DNA of 50,334 nt from Patescibacteria group bacterium (GTDB taxonomy: Bacteria; Patescibacteriota; Minisyncoccia; Moranbacterales; UBA11712): positions 1 through 50,334 of the forward strand of contig JASEHL010000002.1 in the NCBI GenBank assembly GCA_030018805.1, given 5' to 3'. This document shows, piece after piece, positions 6,829 through 23,038 of this stretch. A program made the position numbers and the translations under genes. The stretch's first letter is position 1. The number at the start of each line of letters is the position of its first letter. Below the pieces are notes generated by a model. It saw nothing but the letters and a program-made list of their open reading frames with translations, did no database searches and was not told the origin of the DNA.

Positions 6829-7944
6829 TCATTTCATCTTTTCCAGAAATTCCTTTTCCGCTTCAACGATGTTTTTCCCTTCAAAAATCACTTCGAGGTG
6901 CCCGTTTTTGATTTCTCCTCCCATTATTTTTTGGATATCTCTCAAAGATTCGGTTTCCGAGTTTTTGATGAGCGCGACGCTTCGGTCGAGTGATTCGCTG
7001 TAGAGAACGGCGAAGAACCGGCCGGCCGAGAAATTGTCTTTTATCTTTTCCAGAATCACCGGAAGGTCGGTCAGCTTTGAGCGGCTTTGGACGAAATCTT
7101 CAATTGAAACGAGCGACCAGGCCAGTTTCCTGCCTTCATCCCAGTTGAGCCGGGCCATGACGCGCCCCCAAAGTTTCATAAAAGAAAAGGATTGGGTTTT
7201 CAGAAGATGGCGGATGATTTCCTGCTGATCGGCGCCTTTTTCGATGAGCCAGGAAGCGGTAAGGAATGTTTGGGGCGTTGTTTTTTGGTTTTGGAAATTG
7301 GAAGTGGCGGAAACAAGGCCGGTCAAAAAACAGCGGGAGATGTCGGAATTCGTGAATTTTTCCCAGTGGGTTTTGGCGAGTTCGGCGATAATCCCCGAAA
7401 GAGAAGAAGCGGTGATGTCGACGAAGTTGATTTGACCGAAATTTTCATTGGCGCTCGCGTTGTCGATATTCACGATGGGGACTTCAAAAAAAAGGTCGGC
7501 GTTTTTTTCTCTCATCTCGCCGAAGTTTTCAAGATTCTGACAGCCCAAGACCACAAGCAGGTCGTATTTGAATTTTGCCGTAATGAACGAAAAATCCCGC
7601 GGGTCAATGGTTTCTTTTTCGGGCGTGATGTATATGTCGAAAGAATCAAGCTTGTTTTCGGTCCGAAAGTCGATGATTTTGTTCCGGGTCGTGTTGAACG
7701 AAAGGACAAAATCGCGCGCGCCGACGATTTCCCTTTCTTGTTTCTCGGGAGCGGGGAGAAATTTCAATTTTTCTTTTTGGGAATCGCTCTCAAGAATCGT
7801 TGGATTTTTGCCGATGCTTTTCAAGAGATGGAAGAGTCCCCAGCTGGCGGCAATCGCGTCGCCGGAGGCTTTTGGTTTTGTCAGAATCAAAATATTCTCC
7901 GCTGTTCCGATTTGGTTTTTGATTTGGTCTTGGATGGATAGCAT
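6829..7944 (-). CDS. DHH/DHHA1-family phosphoesterase-like protein (NrnA-like) with degenerate catalytic motifs
   Basis: Overall NrnA-like layout (..ILILTKPKASGDAIAAS.., ..VNIDNASANENFG.., ..GGEIKNGH..). The DHH motif reads DNA and motif I lacks the His/Asp pair. Confidence 0.6.
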   Translation of the reverse strand: MLSIQDQIKNQIGTAENILILTKPKASGDAIAASWGLFHLLKSIGKNPTILESDSQKEKLKFLPAPEKQEREIVGARDFVLSFNTTRNKIIDFRTENKLDSFDIYITPEKETIDPRDFSFITAKFKYDLLVVLGCQNLENFGEMREKNADLFFEVPIVNIDNASANENFGQINFVDITASSLSGIIAELAKTHWEKFTNSDISRCFLTGLVSATSNFQNQKTTPQTFLTASWLIEKGADQQEIIRHLLKTQSFSFMKLWGRVMARLNWDEGRKLAWSLVSIEDFVQSRSKLTDLPVILEKIKDNFSAGRFFAVLYSESLDRSVALIKNSETESLRDIQKIMGGEIKNGHLEVIFEGKNIVEAEKEFLEKMK

Positions 7945-8273
7945 GTGACTTATAACTTATAACTTGTAACGCAAGATTGATCATGCTACAAGTTACAGGT
8001 TTTGAGTTTCAAGAGAGCGGTATTTCAAAATAACAAACAAGATGGGAAACGTCAAACTTGCCCCGCACCAGTTCTGCGGTCGAATATTTGCGAGACGTAA
8101 CTGGCGAATAGCCAGATCCCCTTCAACCAGCGTCGCAATTTGCCATTTTCGGAAAACTTTGCTTGTTAAAATTTATGTTTGTGTTGGTAGAATTGATGCG
8201 GGGGTTTTCTTTCTTGCGTGAAACATCGAATCAGGGCCTAAAATGGGCTTGATTCGGATTGTTTCACGAGGGA

Positions 8274-8302
8274 TTGACAAAAGGCCGTTTTGGGAGTAAA
8301 AT
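8274..8302 (+). promoter_or_regulatory. Near-consensus sigma-70 promoter for the 8336 lipoprotein gene
   Basis: TTGACA (8274-8279), 17-nt spacer, TAAAAT (8297-8302). An AAGGAG RBS follows. Confidence 0.6.
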
Positions 8303-8335
8303 TAGGGGTTAAAATAAAAGAAGGAGAGAGGCGAA

Positions 8336-8698
8336 ATGAAAAGCCTTCGGATAGTTCTTCTAACAATTGTTGCAGCCGTGTTTTTTTCCGGTTGTGCGGG
8401 TTCAGCGTATTATGGTCCTTCGCCTGCCCACCAGGTCATAGTGGGGTACGTCGATGTGTTAGTATTTGGTCCGCAAGGCTGGCACATCGAAAGGCGGACG
8501 GTGGTCAGAGAGGTTACCCAATACTGGGTTTGGACTCCCGGACCAGCGCCTTACTGGGAGTGGAGGGGTCCCTATTATCCAGGCTGGACTTGGTACGGCC
8601 ATGAGCATCGGTGGCACTGGCGCGGTCCGCATCATCTTCGCCCGCACCATTCGCCACCCGGACCCCCGTATCATCGTGGCGGTCGCCATCGTCGTTAA
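8336..8698 (+). CDS. Small secreted lipoprotein, W/Y/H/P/R-rich
   Basis: Signal peptide with lipobox ..AVFFSGC. Good RBS. Mature part is rich in WxW/HH/PP. The region is visibly GC-richer than its flanks. Confidence 0.6.
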   Translation: MKSLRIVLLTIVAAVFFSGCAGSAYYGPSPAHQVIVGYVDVLVFGPQGWHIERRTVVREVTQYWVWTPGPAPYWEWRGPYYPGWTWYGHEHRWHWRGPHHLRPHHSPPGPPYHRGGRHRR

Positions 8699-17537: not shown

Positions 17538-18587
17538 ATGGAAAAGAAGTTTTTGGATTTTATTCAACAGAATTCGCCAGATGGCGGTTTTTTGCAATCG
17601 GAACATTGGAAATCGTTTCAAGAAGCATGGGGAAGAAAAACTTATTCTCTGAATATCGCTGACGACACAGGTGATCCGATTATCGCGGCTAATATTATTG
17701 AACATACTTTGCCAGTCGTGGGGAATTATTTTTATGTACCGCGTGGACCGGTCGTGCAAGTTAAAAGTGAAAAATTAAAAGTGAAAAGTTACAGTTCAAA
17801 ATTAAAAGTTTTTTTGGATGATTTAGTTGATTTGGCCAAGAGGTGCAAAATTAGTTGGATTCGAGTGGAGCCAAATTATGAAGGAGATTTAGAAGTTATC
17901 AGAGAAAATATTCCAGACGGACTGAAAGTAAAAAAATCCGCCGTTGATATGCAGCCGAGGGAGATATTGATGATGGATATTTCGAAAGACGAGGAAGAAT
18001 TGCTGGCGGGGATGAAACAGAAGACGCGGTATAATATCAGGTTGGCGGAAAAACGGGGGGTTCGCGTATCACATAACATGGAACACATAACACATAACAT
18101 TAATAAATTTTTAAGATTAATAAAAATTACTGCAAAGAGGGACAAGATAACTGCACATCCGGAAAGTTATTATCGCAAAATGTTTGAAACAATTCCGCCG
18201 GAGGTTTTGAAAATGTATGTCGCCGAATACGAAGGAAAATTTATCTGTGCCAATCTGGTCTTATTTTTCGGAAAAACGGCAACATACTTGCATGGAGCTT
18301 CAGACAATATTCATCGCGATGCGATGGCGCCGTATCTTTTGCAGTGGCGACAGATTTTGGATGCGAGAAAAGCGGGATGCGAGAAATATGATTTCGGAGG
18401 GGTGAAAACACATAACATGGAACATGGAACATGGAACACAAGCAGCTGGGGCGGAATAACAAAATTTAAGCAAGGCTTTGCACCGCATGTCGCGCCGGTT
18501 CAATTTCCCGGGTGTTGTGATATTGTTTTGAATCCTTTCAAATATAATCTCTATCGGATTATGCAGAAATTAAAGAGAATCATTTAG
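17538..18587 (+). CDS. FemAB-family peptidoglycan interpeptide-bridge aminoacyltransferase (lipid II:glycine glycyltransferase-like)
   Basis: ..FLQSEHWKSFQEAWG.., ..KQKTRYNIRLAEKRGV.., ..TATYLHGASD..MAPYLLQW..ARKAGCEKYDFGG... Carries three in-frame heptamer-repeat segments. Confidence 0.75.
   Translation: MEKKFLDFIQQNSPDGGFLQSEHWKSFQEAWGRKTYSLNIADDTGDPIIAANIIEHTLPVVGNYFYVPRGPVVQVKSEKLKVKSYSSKLKVFLDDLVDLAKRCKISWIRVEPNYEGDLEVIRENIPDGLKVKKSAVDMQPREILMMDISKDEEELLAGMKQKTRYNIRLAEKRGVRVSHNMEHITHNINKFLRLIKITAKRDKITAHPESYYRKMFETIPPEVLKMYVAEYEGKFICANLVLFFGKTATYLHGASDNIHRDAMAPYLLQWRQILDARKAGCEKYDFGGVKTHNMEHGTWNTSSWGGITKFKQGFAPHVAPVQFPGCCDIVLNPFKYNLYRIMQKLKRII
17761..17810 (+). repeat. AAAAGTG/AAAATTA heptamer repeat inside the FemAB-family gene
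   Basis: ttaaaagtgaaaaattaaaagtgaaaagttacagttcaaaattaaaagtt encodes ..VKSEKLKVKSYSSKLKV.. Confidence 0.9.
18070..18100 (+). repeat. Degenerate CATGGAA/CATAACA heptamer repeat inside the FemAB-family gene
   Basis: cacataacatggaacacataacacataacat encodes ..HNMEHITHNI.. Confidence 0.8.
18408..18439 (+). repeat. (CATGGAA)x3 heptamer repeat inside the FemAB-family gene
   Basis: acacataacatggaacatggaacatggaacaca encodes ..THNMEHGTWNT.. Confidence 0.9.
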
Positions 18588-18627
18588 GATAATTTACTTT
18601 ATATAAAGCAAATATCATCGAAAAAGA

Positions 18628-18656
18628 TTGACAAAAAATTATTTTAGGCGTATACT
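18628..18656 (+). promoter_or_regulatory. Consensus-like sigma-70 promoter driving the 18825 gene
   Basis: TTGACA (18628-18633), 17-nt spacer, TATACT (18651-18656). Confidence 0.65.
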
Positions 18657-18663
18657 GCACCGT

Positions 18664-18824
18664 TGAGTATGGCTCTTTGATATTCAATGTTTCACAGTCA
18701 ATCATTGCGGTTTTTGGCGAGCTTACCCCGTGCGACTAGCTTTACGGGGTTTTGTAGAAAGTTTTTCAAAAACCGCGATGATTTCATCATCCGGCGCAGT
18801 CAAATACTTTGAAGGAGGCTGACC
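18664..18824 (+). promoter_or_regulatory. Structured ~160-nt 5' leader (riboswitch/attenuator-like; class unknown)
   Basis: Long-range helix atcattgcggtttttgg / caaaaaccgcgatgat encloses a terminator-like hairpin ccccgt..acgggg+TTTT (18726-18753). An alternative hairpin gatgatttcatcatc overlaps the 3' arm. A GAAGGAGG RBS lies at 18811. Confidence 0.45.
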
Positions 18825-19886
18825 ATGTGTGAAAATACGGTCGGCGCGGTGTCGGGCAAAAATGCTGGCGACACTGACAGATTGGCGTTGCTTGCGGATT
18901 TCATTACCAAGTGGCGCAAAGACGTGGTTACTGATGACGAGGTGAAAAGGTTTCTTCAGAGGAAAAATCCCTTTATCGTCCCTCCTCCCGCGGCCAAACC
19001 GCTGAATTTTGAGCAGCTTCTGTCTTGGCTCAAGAAAAACGGACTGGAGTCAAAGTTGCCCGGCGGCCTGGAAAAACAGATTGCGGGTCAGGAGGGATTT
19101 TACCGCCGGTTTTTCGGAGACAATTTCCGCATTGACCGCAAAAAGATCACCGTTGACGCGAGTCGTCTGCCGGCCATCAAAGCCGGCCTGGAAGTGGGAT
19201 GTCTGAACTATGCCCTGGTCAAGGCAACGCCGGAAGTCCTGTCTGAAGCGGAAGCGCGGACGACCGAAGCCGAGTTTTTCTTTGAGCGGCCGATGAAACC
19301 GCTCAAAAACGACGGCTTTCAAATTTGGGCGGAAACCGGCACGGATCGTTGGACTAATCTCACCCTCGCGGAACTTTTGCAGAGAGGCAATCCAGCCGAG
19401 CCGGAAGAATTCGACGCCGAGGCCTTCAAAAAGGACTGGGTGGCGGAGGAAGCGAGAGTCATTTTGCAAAAGGGCCCGGCTCCGAAAGTCCAAGCCGGAG
19501 CGGTGGAAATAATTTTCACCAGCGATGTCGCGGACATCCCCCGCGACCAGAAAATCGTCAACAAAAACGGCGAGATCGCGGAACTGGACGACTGCTCATA
19601 CGTGTCGGCGATTGCCGGCAAAGTCAGAGTCCTTTCTCGAGAGGAGGAGCTCCCTCTGGCGGCCCAGCTCTGGACAAGGGACAAAACTTATCTGGCTCTC
19701 AATACCTGGGAGTGGAGAAGAGATGTTATCCCGCATGAAGACAAGGGTGTGAGTCCGCGTTGCTCGGGTGCCCTCGCCGGGTCCCTCGCCGGCGGGTTCC
19801 TCCTCGGCTCCCCCCTCGCCGCGTACTCCGGCCCCCTTCCCCCGCTCGCGTCTTGCCCTAGCACTTCGGGCTTTTTGTTTTTTTGA
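18825..19886 (+). CDS. GC-rich hypothetical protein; candidate DGR target (C-terminal ..NTWEWRRD.. followed by a low-complexity, adenine-free-encoded tail)
   Basis: Strong RBS and promoter. No family recognised for the first ~300 aa. The WEWxxD block resembles the strand preceding variable regions in FGE/C-type-lectin-fold DGR targets. An RT and an Avd-like gene are adjacent. Confidence 0.5.
   Translation: MCENTVGAVSGKNAGDTDRLALLADFITKWRKDVVTDDEVKRFLQRKNPFIVPPPAAKPLNFEQLLSWLKKNGLESKLPGGLEKQIAGQEGFYRRFFGDNFRIDRKKITVDASRLPAIKAGLEVGCLNYALVKATPEVLSEAEARTTEAEFFFERPMKPLKNDGFQIWAETGTDRWTNLTLAELLQRGNPAEPEEFDAEAFKKDWVAEEARVILQKGPAPKVQAGAVEIIFTSDVADIPRDQKIVNKNGEIAELDDCSYVSAIAGKVRVLSREEELPLAAQLWTRDKTYLALNTWEWRRDVIPHEDKGVSPRCSGALAGSLAGGFLLGSPLAAYSGPLPPLASCPSTSGFLFF
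19753..19859 (+). other. 107-nt tract containing a single adenine (3' end of the 18825 gene)
   Basis: Direct base count. The only A between 19753 and 19859 is at 19825. The tract is C/G/T only, so all three plus frames lack stop codons. Confidence 0.9.
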
Positions 19887-20166
19887 GCCAGCCGCTGATT
19901 TCTTTGCCGACGGAAACGATGATTTCCAGGTGCGCTCCGTACCAGCCGATTGGAATCAGCTTTTTCTCTACGGCTATTCTCAAATATTTTTTGAACAAAT
20001 CAAAACTGGCGCTGGCCAACGGCAGATAAGAATTGTTATAAACGGAAGCCAGAGAATATTTGTGGGTTTCATTCAGAGAACGCAGAATCTCTTTGCCGAA
20101 AAGATTTTTATCCAGTTTCGGGAAATTTCGCACCCGATCATAACAATCACCATATAGTTTTTCCAA
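19858..20166 (-). CDS. Avd-like four-helix-bundle accessory protein (23S rRNA IVS protein family-like)
   Basis: ..RVRNFPKLDKNLFGKEILRSL.. and the C-terminal ..IVSVGKEISGWLKK resemble Avd/S23-IVS four-helix-bundle proteins. It lies next to a DGR-type RT but on the opposite strand. Confidence 0.5.
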   Translation of the reverse strand: MEKLYGDCYDRVRNFPKLDKNLFGKEILRSLNETHKYSLASVYNNSYLPLASASFDLFKKYLRIAVEKKLIPIGWYGAHLEIIVSVGKEISGWLKKTKSPKC

Positions 20167-20293
20167 ATCAGAAAATAATTTGGGCTGGGAATTTTTATGA
20201 ACGACATTATTTTTTCTCGACCCGTCGGGGGGGGGCTTTCATGGCAGAAAAATTCGTCATAATATTTTTTCCGAAATAATTAGCCTGGAAAAC

Positions 20294-21262
20294 TTGTTTT
20301 CAGCCTGGCGGGAATTCAGTTCGGGAAAAATGAAAAAAGCGGATGTGCTGGAGTTCAAATTAAATCTCGAAAACAATTTGTTCGACTTGCATTGGGAATT
20401 GAAAAGCAGAACCTACCGTCATTCCAATTATACCGCATTCAACGTCTGCGATCCAAAATTGCGGAGAATCCACAAAGCAAACGTGCGCGACCGGGTTCTC
20501 CACCACGCGGTTTTCCGGATACTTTATCCAATCTTCGATAAAAACTTCATCTATGATTCATATTCCTGTCGAATTGAAAAAGGAACCCATTGGGCAGTTT
20601 CACGCCTCGAAAAATTCTGCCGCCAATTGAGCCGGAACAACACGCGAAATATATTTGCCTTGAAATGCGACGTCAAAAAATTCTTCGATTCGGTGGATCA
20701 GGAAATTTTATTGAATCTTATAAAGAAAAAAATTCAGAACGAGGACGCGATTTGGCTGGTTGAAAAAATAATTTCTAGTTTCAAGCCCGGCTTGCCTCTC
20801 GGCAATGTTACGAGCCAGTTATTCGCCAATATATATCTCAACGAATTGGATCAATTTGTGAAACACAAACTCAAGGAAAAATATTATTTGCGCTATTGCG
20901 ATGATTGCGTAATTTTAGGAAAAAGTGAAAAGCATTTGGAAAATCTTATTCCACAAATCAGCGGCTTTCTTGAGGAAAAACTAAAGTTGAATCTTCATCC
21001 CAATAAAGTTATTCTTAGAAAATATCGGCAGGGAGTTGATTTTCTGGGATATGTGGTTCTGCCGCATCATCGTGTTTTGCGAACGAAAACAAAGCGGAGA
21101 ATGTTGCGGAAAATCGGAGAGAAGAAATTTCTCTGGCGGCAAGATTTGATTTCCGAAGAATCTTTCAATCAGAGCTTGCAATCTTATCTCGGAATGTTGA
21201 AGCATTGCCGGGGACACAACATCAAAAAACGGATTGGGAAGATCACCGGTTTTGAATTATAA
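20294..21262 (+). CDS. DGR-type reverse transcriptase. The conserved N-terminus continues upstream of the TTG at 20294 in the same frame back to 20201; the upstream ATG at 20197 is out of frame across a G9 run.
   Basis: Collinear with Bordetella bRT as remembered: ..SLENLFSAWREFSSGK.., ..DRVLHHAV..IF.., ..CRIEKGTH.., ..LKCDVKKFFDSVD.., GLPLGNVTSQLFANIYL ([I/L]GxxxSQ), RYCDDCVILG, GVDFLGYVV. Confidence 0.85.
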   Translation: MFSAWREFSSGKMKKADVLEFKLNLENNLFDLHWELKSRTYRHSNYTAFNVCDPKLRRIHKANVRDRVLHHAVFRILYPIFDKNFIYDSYSCRIEKGTHWAVSRLEKFCRQLSRNNTRNIFALKCDVKKFFDSVDQEILLNLIKKKIQNEDAIWLVEKIISSFKPGLPLGNVTSQLFANIYLNELDQFVKHKLKEKYYLRYCDDCVILGKSEKHLENLIPQISGFLEEKLKLNLHPNKVILRKYRQGVDFLGYVVLPHHRVLRTKTKRRMLRKIGEKKFLWRQDLISEESFNQSLQSYLGMLKHCRGHNIKKRIGKITGFEL

Positions 21263-21270
21263 TAAAACCA

Positions 21271-21738
21271 ATGGCCAACCCAGTGAAAAAACGCGTGGGG
21301 ATATTTTCGCTCACTTGCGACGAGGGGTGCAGTATATATCTCACCGAGATATTCAATAAAAAATTGCTTCCCTGGCTTGAAAAAATGGAACTGGCGTATT
21401 TTTTGGCGCTCAAAAACCACACGGAAGCGGAAGATCTGGATATTGCGCTCGTGGAAGGCGTAGTGACGAGCGAAAAAGATCTCGAGCATATCAAGAAAAT
21501 CAGGCAAATATCGAAAATTCTCATCGCAATGGGCACTTGCGCGATAACCGCTCTTCCGTCGGGCCAGCGGAACAATTTCAATATCAACCAGCTCAAGGAA
21601 ATCGAAGGACATCTCGAGAAATACAACTTCCTGCCGAAAGCCCTGGCGCTCAAAAATATCGTGAAAGTAGATGACGAGATCATGGGATGTCCGATCGAGG
21701 AAGAGAAGTTTATTGAGACTTTTGAAAAATATTTATAA
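21271..21738 (+). CDS. [NiFe]-hydrogenase small (delta-type) subunit, single proximal Fe-S cluster
   Basis: Short NuoB/hydrogenase-small fold with Cys ligands ..LTCDEGCS.., ..MGTCA.., ..GCPIEE... It lies directly upstream of the large subunit. Confidence 0.8.
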   Translation: MANPVKKRVGIFSLTCDEGCSIYLTEIFNKKLLPWLEKMELAYFLALKNHTEAEDLDIALVEGVVTSEKDLEHIKKIRQISKILIAMGTCAITALPSGQRNNFNINQLKEIEGHLEKYNFLPKALALKNIVKVDDEIMGCPIEEEKFIETFEKYL

Positions 21739-21742
21739 ATAC

Positions 21743-23038
21743 ATGCATAAATGTAACTTAGACATAGAGATTAACAAATTATCAAAGATCGAAGGCCACG
21801 CGGACCTGGATATCAGGATCCGGAACGGGAAACTCAAAGAAGTGAATCTCAAAGTGATGGAAAACGTGCGGTTTTTCAACGAAGCCGTGAAGGGGATGAA
21901 TTTCAACGCCGTGCCGCAGTTGGTTTCACGGATTTGCGGCACCTGTTCGATTGCCCATCTCACCGGATGCATCGAAGCGGTGGAAAAAACTTTGAGTATT
22001 GTTCCGAGCAGGCAGACTATGATCCTGCGCAAACTCACGGTTTATTCGATGATGATCCGCGACCATGCTTTGCACTTGTATTTTTTCGTTCTGCCCGATA
22101 TGTTCGGTATCGATTCAATTCTTGATTTGCCGGAGGACAAGCATGAAATTATTCATGACGCTCTGGCGGTGAAAGAAGCGGGGAACAATTTATCGGAACT
22201 GGTTGCGGGACGGGCCGTTCACGCCCCGTTCGAGCAAGTCGGAGGGTTCAGTCGCGAAATCGATAAGAAAAAGGTTCCGGCGATGGTCGAAGAATTGAAA
22301 AAAGTCCGGCCGCTCGTGTTGAAACTAATCGATATATTCGCGAAATGCGATTGGGAATTCAAGCGCAAGACGAATTTCGTCGCGCTCGTTACGGATGACT
22401 TTTCGTTCCTTGAAGGCAAAATCAAGAGTTCGACTGGAGAAGTAATCGAAGAAAAAGACTATTGGGATCATCTGTACAATGTCGCCTTGCCGTATTCGCA
22501 GGCAAGCGGGTTTGAGTTTGAGGGAAAGGAATATATGGTCGGGTCTCTCGCGCGTTTGAATCTCAACAGAGAAAATTTGCACGCGGACATGAAAAGGGAC
22601 GCGGCGAAGTACCTCGCGAAATTTCCGTCGGAAAATATCTATGACAACAATCTGGCGCAGGCGATTGAAATTCTGCATTCAATCGACCATTCGATCGAAA
22701 TACTCGAAAATACAAAATTTCAAAAAGAGGATCCGGCAAAACCGGAAAAATTAACAGGGAGAGGGGCGGGCGTGATCGAAGCTCCGCGGGGAACTTTATA
22801 CTACGCGCTTGAAATAGAAGACGGGAAAGTGAAGAGCCTAAAGTTGGTTATTCCAACGGCCCAGAATCTGGTGAATATGAAGAAAGATGTCGAGCAGATC
22901 GTCTCGGGCCTCTGTGCGACCGAAATCGGCAAAGAAGAACTCGAAAAACATATCATACTTGAAGTATCCAAGCTCATCCGCGCCTATGATCCCTGCATGT
23001 CCTGCGCCTCGCACTTTTTGCGAGTGAAGTGGGTGTAG
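21743..23038 (+). CDS. [NiFe]-hydrogenase large (catalytic) subunit
   Basis: N-terminal RICGTCSIAH (RxCGxCxxxH) and C-terminal DPCMSCASH followed by the cleavable FLRVKWV tail. Confidence 0.9.
   Translation: MHKCNLDIEINKLSKIEGHADLDIRIRNGKLKEVNLKVMENVRFFNEAVKGMNFNAVPQLVSRICGTCSIAHLTGCIEAVEKTLSIVPSRQTMILRKLTVYSMMIRDHALHLYFFVLPDMFGIDSILDLPEDKHEIIHDALAVKEAGNNLSELVAGRAVHAPFEQVGGFSREIDKKKVPAMVEELKKVRPLVLKLIDIFAKCDWEFKRKTNFVALVTDDFSFLEGKIKSSTGEVIEEKDYWDHLYNVALPYSQASGFEFEGKEYMVGSLARLNLNRENLHADMKRDAAKYLAKFPSENIYDNNLAQAIEILHSIDHSIEILENTKFQKEDPAKPEKLTGRGAGVIEAPRGTLYYALEIEDGKVKSLKLVIPTAQNLVNMKKDVEQIVSGLCATEIGKEELEKHIILEVSKLIRAYDPCMSCASHFLRVKWV

Follow-up and report, generated by a model that had tools for sequence, protein, structure and literature searches.

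The question raised by this locus is whether a diversity-generating retroelement (DGR) can do without its template repeat (TR). The locus lies in a stretch of 50,334 nucleotides of contig JASEHL010000002.1, from a Moranbacteria-like Patescibacteria group bacterium (hereafter, the window), and consists of a target gene, a small gene on the opposite strand resembling avd and a gene for a reverse transcriptase (RT). An earlier reading of the letters alone (the sequence-only reading) had proposed these three identities and had pointed to the lack of a TR and to an odd gene layout. Our results suggest that the locus is not a new kind of template-less system but, in all likelihood, a decayed DGR which has lost its TR and the associated RNA scaffold through a deletion between the variable region (VR) and the TR. 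The apparently template-less element would, hence, be a product of decay, and the sequences on either side of its single remaining repeat indicate how it arose.

Components of the element

On the evidence of its sequence, the RT is a member of the DGR clade. It aligned over its full length with the PDB chain 8ub7_A (328 aa; E=9e-50), whereas the next matches, to retron-type and group II RTs, were at 7e-23 or worse. We take 8ub7_A to be the Bordetella phage bRT, recognised from the aligned sequence (HRNLIDQITTWENLLDAY...IGSLTSQLFANVY...YMDD); the code does not occur in the text of the cryo-EM preprint. The RT also matches RVT_1 (E=3e-22), carries LGNVTSQLFANIY (the IGxxxSQ block) and YCDD, and is 69 to 79% identical to the RTs of family loci that have canonical TR/VR pairs. 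Its relatives (at least 7988 matches at E<1e-30) form a very large Patescibacteria clade. The retron, Drt and Abi models of NCBIfam all scored far under their cut-offs against this protein and, together with the bRT-like best match, these scores rule out a retron, group II, Abi or UG enzyme. The proposal of a DGR-type RT collinear with bRT is therefore upheld. The open reading frames (ORFs) listed previously (the RT at 20294..21262, the 102-aa ORF and the target ORF) were all reproduced, with one amendment: the true RT start is an ATG at 20197 in a different frame, and the RT frame itself is open from 20201.

The 102-aa ORF was correctly described as Avd-like, as judged by sequence profiles. 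It matches the bAvd-like family of Pfam (PF22296; E=6e-6, positions 8-106 of 107) and the DGR Avd model of NCBIfam (DivGenRetAVD, NF033474; E=2e-7, full profile length), in both cases under the curated cut-off. PF22296 is matched by 11 of 11 Avd copies of the family (best 9e-9), and the Avd of the window is 68 to 89% identical to those of loci with canonical TR/VR pairs; searches of the PDB with the single Avd sequence and with a profile found no match.

The target belongs to a family of ~40 homologues of 330-360 aa with a conserved body and a C terminus, ..NTWEWRRD..H.DK..P..SVA.A.S.G.EF.L.S..A..S....RLRLAL, in which fixed and variable columns alternate over the last ~35 residues. A VR profile matches 19751-19873 of the window (E=4e-10), and these two observations substantiate the claim that the GC-rich ORF is a DGR target with a C-terminal variable region. 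The ORF (18825..19886) is indeed richer in GC than its surroundings, with 0.55 in the body, 0.40 in the RT and 0.45 in the rest of the window. We rejected this as a mark of foreign origin because the same is found in all family loci: the target body exceeds the rest of the locus by 3-10 points in every one of them (2 in L020) and the RT by 7-20 points. The body had no match in Pfam or the PDB by sequence or profile. An AlphaFold2 model of a canonical member (P0011) had a pLDDT of 89 and a pTM of 0.80, with values of 84-95 over the last 30 residues; the corresponding residues of the window target reached 25-44, and the model with this poor C terminus gave no fold match. Foldseek comparison of the P0011 model with the PDB produced weak matches (best E=0.4), among them several C-type lectin domains with TM values of 0.25-0.47, and comparison with BFVD produced nothing. 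These comparisons did not confirm the C-type-lectin/FGE fold suggested for the target by the sequence-only reading.

Intact relatives of the element

Loci were fetched around target homologues and RT relatives (labels L001 onwards), and the order of the cassette was mapped by tblastn. The intact order is target with VR (+), a gap of ~430 nt, TR, avd (-) and RT (+). Canonical VR/TR pairs were found in L001, L005, L007, L008, L010/L016, L012, L018, L019 and L020 (at least eight lineages). The TR is ~115 nt long, lies ~430 nt from the VR, overlaps the avd stop with its 3' end and differs from the target end by 12-18 mismatches at TR adenines and 0-2 elsewhere. The relatives are labelled Moranbacteria and Paceibacterota, and this element family is common in Patescibacteria. 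In every complete locus avd is antiparallel and the gap between avd and RT is short (~30 nt where measured). Two of the features that had seemed odd in the window, the antiparallel avd and the 30 nt separating its start (20166) from the ATG at 20197, are thus the norm for the family. The 29-nt overlap between avd and the target was confirmed; this and the missing TR, previously read as an unusual architecture, would be the product of a VR-TR deletion which fused the target to the TR 3' flank.

Alignment of the spacers of eight canonical loci revealed a fixed order of elements: the VR end CGTCTCGCCCTA, a stop codon followed by ACTTCGGG, GC hairpins, a terminator, a promoter, a conserved segment of ~180 nt and the TR. 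The VR flank reads CTA-TAA/TGA/TAG and then has one or two perfect GC hairpins of 6-9 bp. The ~180-nt segment upstream of the TR is a conserved structured RNA domain. Its RNAalifold prediction has three local hairpins, which show compensatory changes, and a long-range helix of 15 bp in which AACAAAACCCGAAGU of the 5' segment pairs with ACUUCGGGC-UUUUGUU directly after the TR; this helix is invariant and, hence, has no support from covariation. Its 3' strand is the antisense of the C-terminal Avd codons KTKSPKC*. Eleven canonical locus records contain ACAAAACCCGAAGTTCAGCG, a 20-mer of the RNA domain that is invariant. The spacer alignment also shows a TGnTAgAAT-type promoter at which the template RNA apparently starts.

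Absence of a template repeat

None of these template elements was detected in the window. A repeat-pair scan of all positions against all, tolerant of adenine mismatches and covering both orientations of the 50 kb, returned 0 pairs; the target tail scanned in the same manner against the whole window returned 0 matches. The TR profile of the family matched only the 3' end of the remaining repeat. The absence of a TR from the window, as first reported, therefore stands, and the pairs with mismatches at TR adenines that are seen in at least eight related lineages have no counterpart here. A generic repeat finder applied to 18000-22000 gave short chance repeats only, and Rfam identified one tRNA in the whole window and nothing else. 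The spacer profile found nothing significant in the 50 kb (best E ~0.03, one of these hits being the repeat end), and the 20-mer ACAAAACCCGAAGTTCAGCG had 0 matches there even with up to 3 mismatches allowed. The window thus lacks both the promoter and the ~180-nt RNA domain, which in relatives provide the template with its structured flank. On the recipient side, the repeat is followed by the TR-type CTA-GC dinucleotide and no GC hairpin (fold z=+0.6).

The remaining repeat and the deletion junction

A MAFFT alignment of the window with seven VR/TR pairs showed that the single remaining repeat is a composite. Its 5' flank, GAGTCCGCGTTGCTCG, belongs to the target body and is VR-type, as are all variable columns of the repeat upstream of a segment that is shared between VR and TR in the relatives. 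After the shared CGTCTTGCCCTA, the window continues with GC-ACTTCGGGCTTTTTGTTTTTTTGAGCCAGCC, which is the flank found after the TR of the relatives and is unlike the flank of their VRs. This TR-type 3' flank, CTA-GC-ACTTCGGGCTTTTTG, leads directly into avd; it matches the TR flanks of L001, L005, L012, L019 and others, whose VRs are flanked by a stop codon and GC hairpins. In agreement with this, the match of the VR profile spans the whole repeat whereas that of the TR profile is limited to 33 nt (19843-19875). As the repeat is VR-type upstream and TR-type downstream, the junction of the deletion must lie within 19841-19860. Comparison with L020 by blastn gave the same picture: window positions 19015-19870 correspond to its target and VR and positions 19760-20642 to its TR, avd and RT, so that 19760-19870 align to both VR and TR of L020 while nothing in the window corresponds to L020 positions 7037-7352.

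The end of the target gene is damaged in two ways. The VR stop codon is lost, with the window reading the TR-type CTA-GCA, and an extra C in a C run, in an alignment column unique to the window among the VRs and TRs of the family, shifts the frame. This insertion replaces the conserved RLRLAL end with PLPPLASCPSTSGFLFF and leaves the ~45-aa tail out of the family frame.

These observations would be explained if VR and TR, as direct repeats ~430 nt apart, had undergone recombination or slippage in the 3' segment of ~19 nt in which they are identical. Such a deletion (~430 bp) would have removed the VR stop codon and hairpins, the terminator, the TR promoter, the RNA domain and the body of the TR, and would have left the target body, the VR-type repeat, the TR 3' flank, avd and the RT. 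The TR-less state is taken as derived because two loci at the same chromosomal position (L026 and L027) have a complete cassette, albeit with another target/Avd module. An engineered system provides a precedent, as homologous recombination of TR with VR has been reported there (10.1101/2025.03.24.644984); our literature search found no description of VR/TR recombination in natural genomes.

What such a deletion would mean for activity can be judged by analogy with the Bordetella phage DGR, for which a hairpin or cruciform flanking the VR is reportedly needed for homing. According to one study (PMC3240598), the direction of information transfer is set by the initiation of mutagenic homing (IMH) region at the VR end and, according to another (10.1101/2023.10.23.563531), cDNA synthesis in Bordetella requires a template flanked by structured RNA segments. 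We infer that an IMH-like end and a hairpin would likewise be needed in the family of the window. Because signals of both kinds are gone, on the template flank and on the VR side, inactivity is likely: with no template RNA and no recognition hairpin beside the VR, cDNA would be neither made nor accepted. By this analogy the element is most likely inactive and its variable region frozen.

Collapsed relatives

The same collapsed layout exists outside the window. In the L013 lineage (Ga0172370_10000259 and four other assemblies), a single repeat has the target upstream and the TR flank and avd downstream, with RT and avd intact as in the window. Eight contigs, which come from several samples and two assembly pipelines, encode the L013 target protein, and the five fetched loci are identical over 680 nt covering the target end, the repeat and avd. 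Recovery of this layout in five assemblies by two pipelines indicates that VR-TR collapse exists in nature. The VR of L013 is unchanging across five samples. Unlike the window, L013 still has a stop in frame (CTC-TAG), and its RGRLAL end is intact.

A neighbor-joining tree of RT plus Avd united the window, L013 and the canonical L012 in 199 of 200 replicates, with the window and L013 as sisters in only 48 of 200; independence of the two collapses was therefore judged not by the tree but by the variable columns. The window matches L013 at 5 of 26 variable columns and at 54 of 73 other columns, which argues that their VRs diversified separately and that the collapses would be independent events.

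A third case, L025 (JAPLXD010000015.1), is also collapsed, and its RT side is in synteny with that of the window. It shares with the window a single repeat followed by the TR flank and avd, with RT and avd intact, but it has a different target/Avd module, the one also present in L026 and L027, and has kept an adenine-rich, TR-type repeat. At L025 128-876 the target body is fused to this repeat, which abuts avd with a 4-nt overlap of stop codons; as the locus is close to the end of its contig, the fusion may be an effect of assembly.

Weighing the alternatives

Several observations weigh against a simple VR-TR deletion. The junction is known from a single contig alone. RT and avd are still intact ORFs, which fits a recent deletion but would fit continued use as well. 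The TR search covers the 50-kb window out of the whole genome. Lastly, the composition of the repeat is unusual: 2 of 26 TR-adenine columns of the family are kept as A, compared with 42% in canonical VRs (P about 1e-4), and the substitutions are rich in C (10 C, 7 T and 7 G, n=24) where those of relatives are mainly G (60 G, 31 T and 12 C, n=103). The depletion of adenine is confined exactly to the canonical limits of the VR, the flanks having 18-29% A. A plain crossover between VR and TR does not account for this near-adenine-free, C-rich repeat.

It is conceivable that the real genome is complete and that the assembly passed by mistake from the VR to the TR flank at the 3' segment that VR and TR share. 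VR and TR are repeats, and a hypervariable VR population would fragment the assembly graph and ease a false join; the window is one contig, with its protein seen on that contig only, and some relatives have a long identical 3' stretch, as in L018, where VR and TR do not differ over their last ~55 nt. In the window, however, the sequence is VR-type up to ~19843 and TR-type from 19861, leaving at most ~19 nt for the join, which would be under the usual final k-mers, and the layout of L013 was obtained in five independent assemblies with two pipelines. We therefore consider an assembly artefact improbable.

Slightly less probable still is an element that continues to work with a template RNA (TR and RNA domain) encoded outside the window. 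Remote targets and TRs distant from the RT occur in other DGRs. The intact RT and avd would be in keeping with a distant template, and with the scan limited to 50 kb other regions of the genome could hold one. The evidence from the junction speaks against it, as the target runs straight into the flank that belongs downstream of the TR, indicating that the TR locus was here and has been emptied, not moved. Moreover, the recipient side appears to be disabled, with a TR-type (IMH*-like) dinucleotide and no flanking hairpin, the target is frameshifted, and the collapsed VR of L013 has not changed over five samples.

The composition of the repeat could also be attributed to a burn-out in which the fused repeat acts as both template and recipient and loses adenines in a one-way ratchet, so that a natural DGR destroys its own template. 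The confinement of the depletion to the VR limits and the 2 of 26 columns would agree with this, as would the low value for L013 (6 of 26) and the precedent of TR self-mutagenesis in engineered DGR systems (10.1101/2025.03.24.644984). We regard this as the least probable explanation, because the promoter and RNA domain present in every canonical relative are gone, a ratchet would predict the usual G>T>C spectrum where C dominates, a single converted tract in L018 keeps as few as ~2 of 16 adenines, and the collapsed repeat of L025 is still fully A-rich and TR-type.

Comparison with known systems and implications

The window and its relatives resemble the DGR of phage BPP-1 (mtd-VR, avd, TR, brt) in several ways. 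The RT of the window is bRT-like from end to end, with IGxxxSQ and YxDD motifs, and is accompanied by an Avd-like protein; the relatives share with BPP-1 a VR at the 3' end of the target, differences from the TR near-exclusively at TR adenines and GC hairpins after the VR. Unlike in BPP-1, avd of this family is antiparallel and lies between TR and RT, and in the relatives the structured RNA is upstream of the TR and is predicted to pair with a short segment just 3' of it. The BPP-1 template is reported to sit between an upstream segment derived from avd and a downstream spacer (10.1101/2023.10.23.563531). The copy in the window further differs from BPP-1 in having no TR, RNA domain or VR hairpin. 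The DGRs of the candidate phyla radiation (CPR) collected by Wu et al. in 2018 (PMC5758913) are like the window in host group and small-genome context, in targets without a recognisable domain and in a VR of unassigned class. The published CPR sets list putatively functional DGRs bearing TR and VR (PMC5758913), a filter that the copy in the window would fail.

If our reading is correct, VR-TR recombination is a recurrent route of DGR death, seen in at least three independent lineages among the roughly a dozen RT-bearing ones examined. It also provides a rule for DGR finders: where an RT, an Avd and a target are found with no TR, the sequence after the VR should be compared with the TR flanks of relatives. 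For DGR specialists, the family has two further features, namely a template RNA with its structured domain on the 5' side of the TR and, where the RT begins, a poly-G tract whose length varies between samples.

The poly-G tract and other features of the locus

The coordinates of the features are collected in Table 1.

Table 1. Features of the DGR locus in the window and of corresponding regions in related loci.
Feature	Position	Strand	Basis or remark
Promoter-like site of the target, TTGACA-17-TATACT	18628..18656	+	11/12 consensus positions; consensus match only
Target 5' leader with 17-nt inverted repeat around a terminator-like hairpin	18657..18824	+	Repeat arms 18700-18716 / 18767-18783
DGR target (variable protein), body	18825..19752	+	~40 homologues, 45-70% identity
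Single remaining repeat, VR-type 5' flank and body	19753..19858	+	1 A in 106 nt; VR profile, alignment
1-nt insertion in C run (extra C)	19830..19843	+	MAFFT column
Segment identical between VR and TR in relatives, CCGnTTGCGTCTCGCCCTA	19841..19860	+	Junction must lie here
TR-type 3' flank, GC-ACTTCGGGCTTTTTGTTTTTTTGAGCCAGCC	19861..19895	+	Antisense of Avd KTKSPKC*; 3' strand of predicted helix in relatives
Avd-like accessory gene, 102 aa, intact	19858..20166	-	bAvd-like and DGR Avd profile matches
Conserved RT start: ATG, peptide MNDIIFSRPVGGG, G9 tract at 20227-20235	20197..20235	+	Remaining RT in +1 frame
DGR-clade RT reading frame	20201..21262	+	No internal stop; YCDD motif intact
Poly-G RT start, copies	Window 20197-20260; L001 7788-7826; L018 6818-6855; L020 7789-7827; L013/L021-L024		
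Template RNA region in relatives	L001 7172-7488; L005 2053-2367; L012 5976-6291		Alignment A3, plus five other loci

The RT start is conserved in the relatives as an ATG, a peptide of the form MN[DN]I...GGG and a tract of G9 to G11. Downstream of the tract, the window and most relatives continue the RT in the +1 frame; in L018 and L020 it stays in frame, and in L010 and L021 it is offset by 2 (in L021 by arithmetic from the tract length). The five L013 assemblies are the same over 680 nt, yet their tracts are G10, G11, G10, G10 and G11. Across the RT clade at large, many protein calls run in frame through the GGG and many others begin only past the tract. The tract suggests slipped-strand phase variation or programmed slippage of a DGR RT, with the caveat that homopolymer lengths are subject to assembly error. 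We found no mention of a poly-G tract at the RT start in a literature search on DGRs.

Other observations concern the repeat and the family loci. The repeat is 51% C, has CTC about six times where the family TR has AAY codons, and holds a 15-nt periodic direct repeat (D1); the tail it encodes is almost only Gly, Ala, Leu, Ser and Pro. In L020, an RT with an internal deletion of ~90 aa (7837-8532) stands beside an intact VR/TR pair. In L003 the target is directly followed by a C-terminal piece of the RT (7111-7746), with no avd or TR, and L004 is likewise truncated; L009, L011, L014 and L015 have a target, but the flanks fetched (up to 5 kb per side, less at contig ends) contain neither RT nor avd. 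An apparent second target site in L018 (8911-8961) was dismissed as an A-rich chance match.

The near-consensus promoter attributed to the target corresponds to a promoter-like site directly upstream of the leader, in a region homologous to the syntenic loci L026 and L027. Homology of the leader DNA to these loci extends up to 18827, though the target gene there is different. The arms of the leader inverted repeat (I11) are 94% complementary and 50 nt apart, and between them lies a 7-bp hairpin with TTTT after it (about 18725-18753). In Rfam the leader had no match; it could be an attenuator or a regulatory RNA.

The Moranbacteria loci L026 and L027 share with the window the genes for S20, RuvA and FemAB and the leader upstream, and the RT downstream; L026 also shares the hydrogenase small subunit. 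Between the target start codon and the RT start (L026 2405-3918, L027 2278-3867) they have an unrelated target, a TR and a different type of Avd. The target-TR-avd module seems to have been swapped as a block, with boundaries at window positions 18827 and ~20212, the latter beside the poly-G tract. Downstream, a gene resembling a hydrogenase small subunit (Oxidored_q6) begins at 21271, 8 nt after the RT stop, and the ORF at 21671-23038 is taken to be a putative hydrogenase large subunit, the gene at the same position in L025 being annotated NiFeSe_Hases. Adjacency of RT and hydrogenase genes is also found in L025, in L026 and on the P0045 contig.

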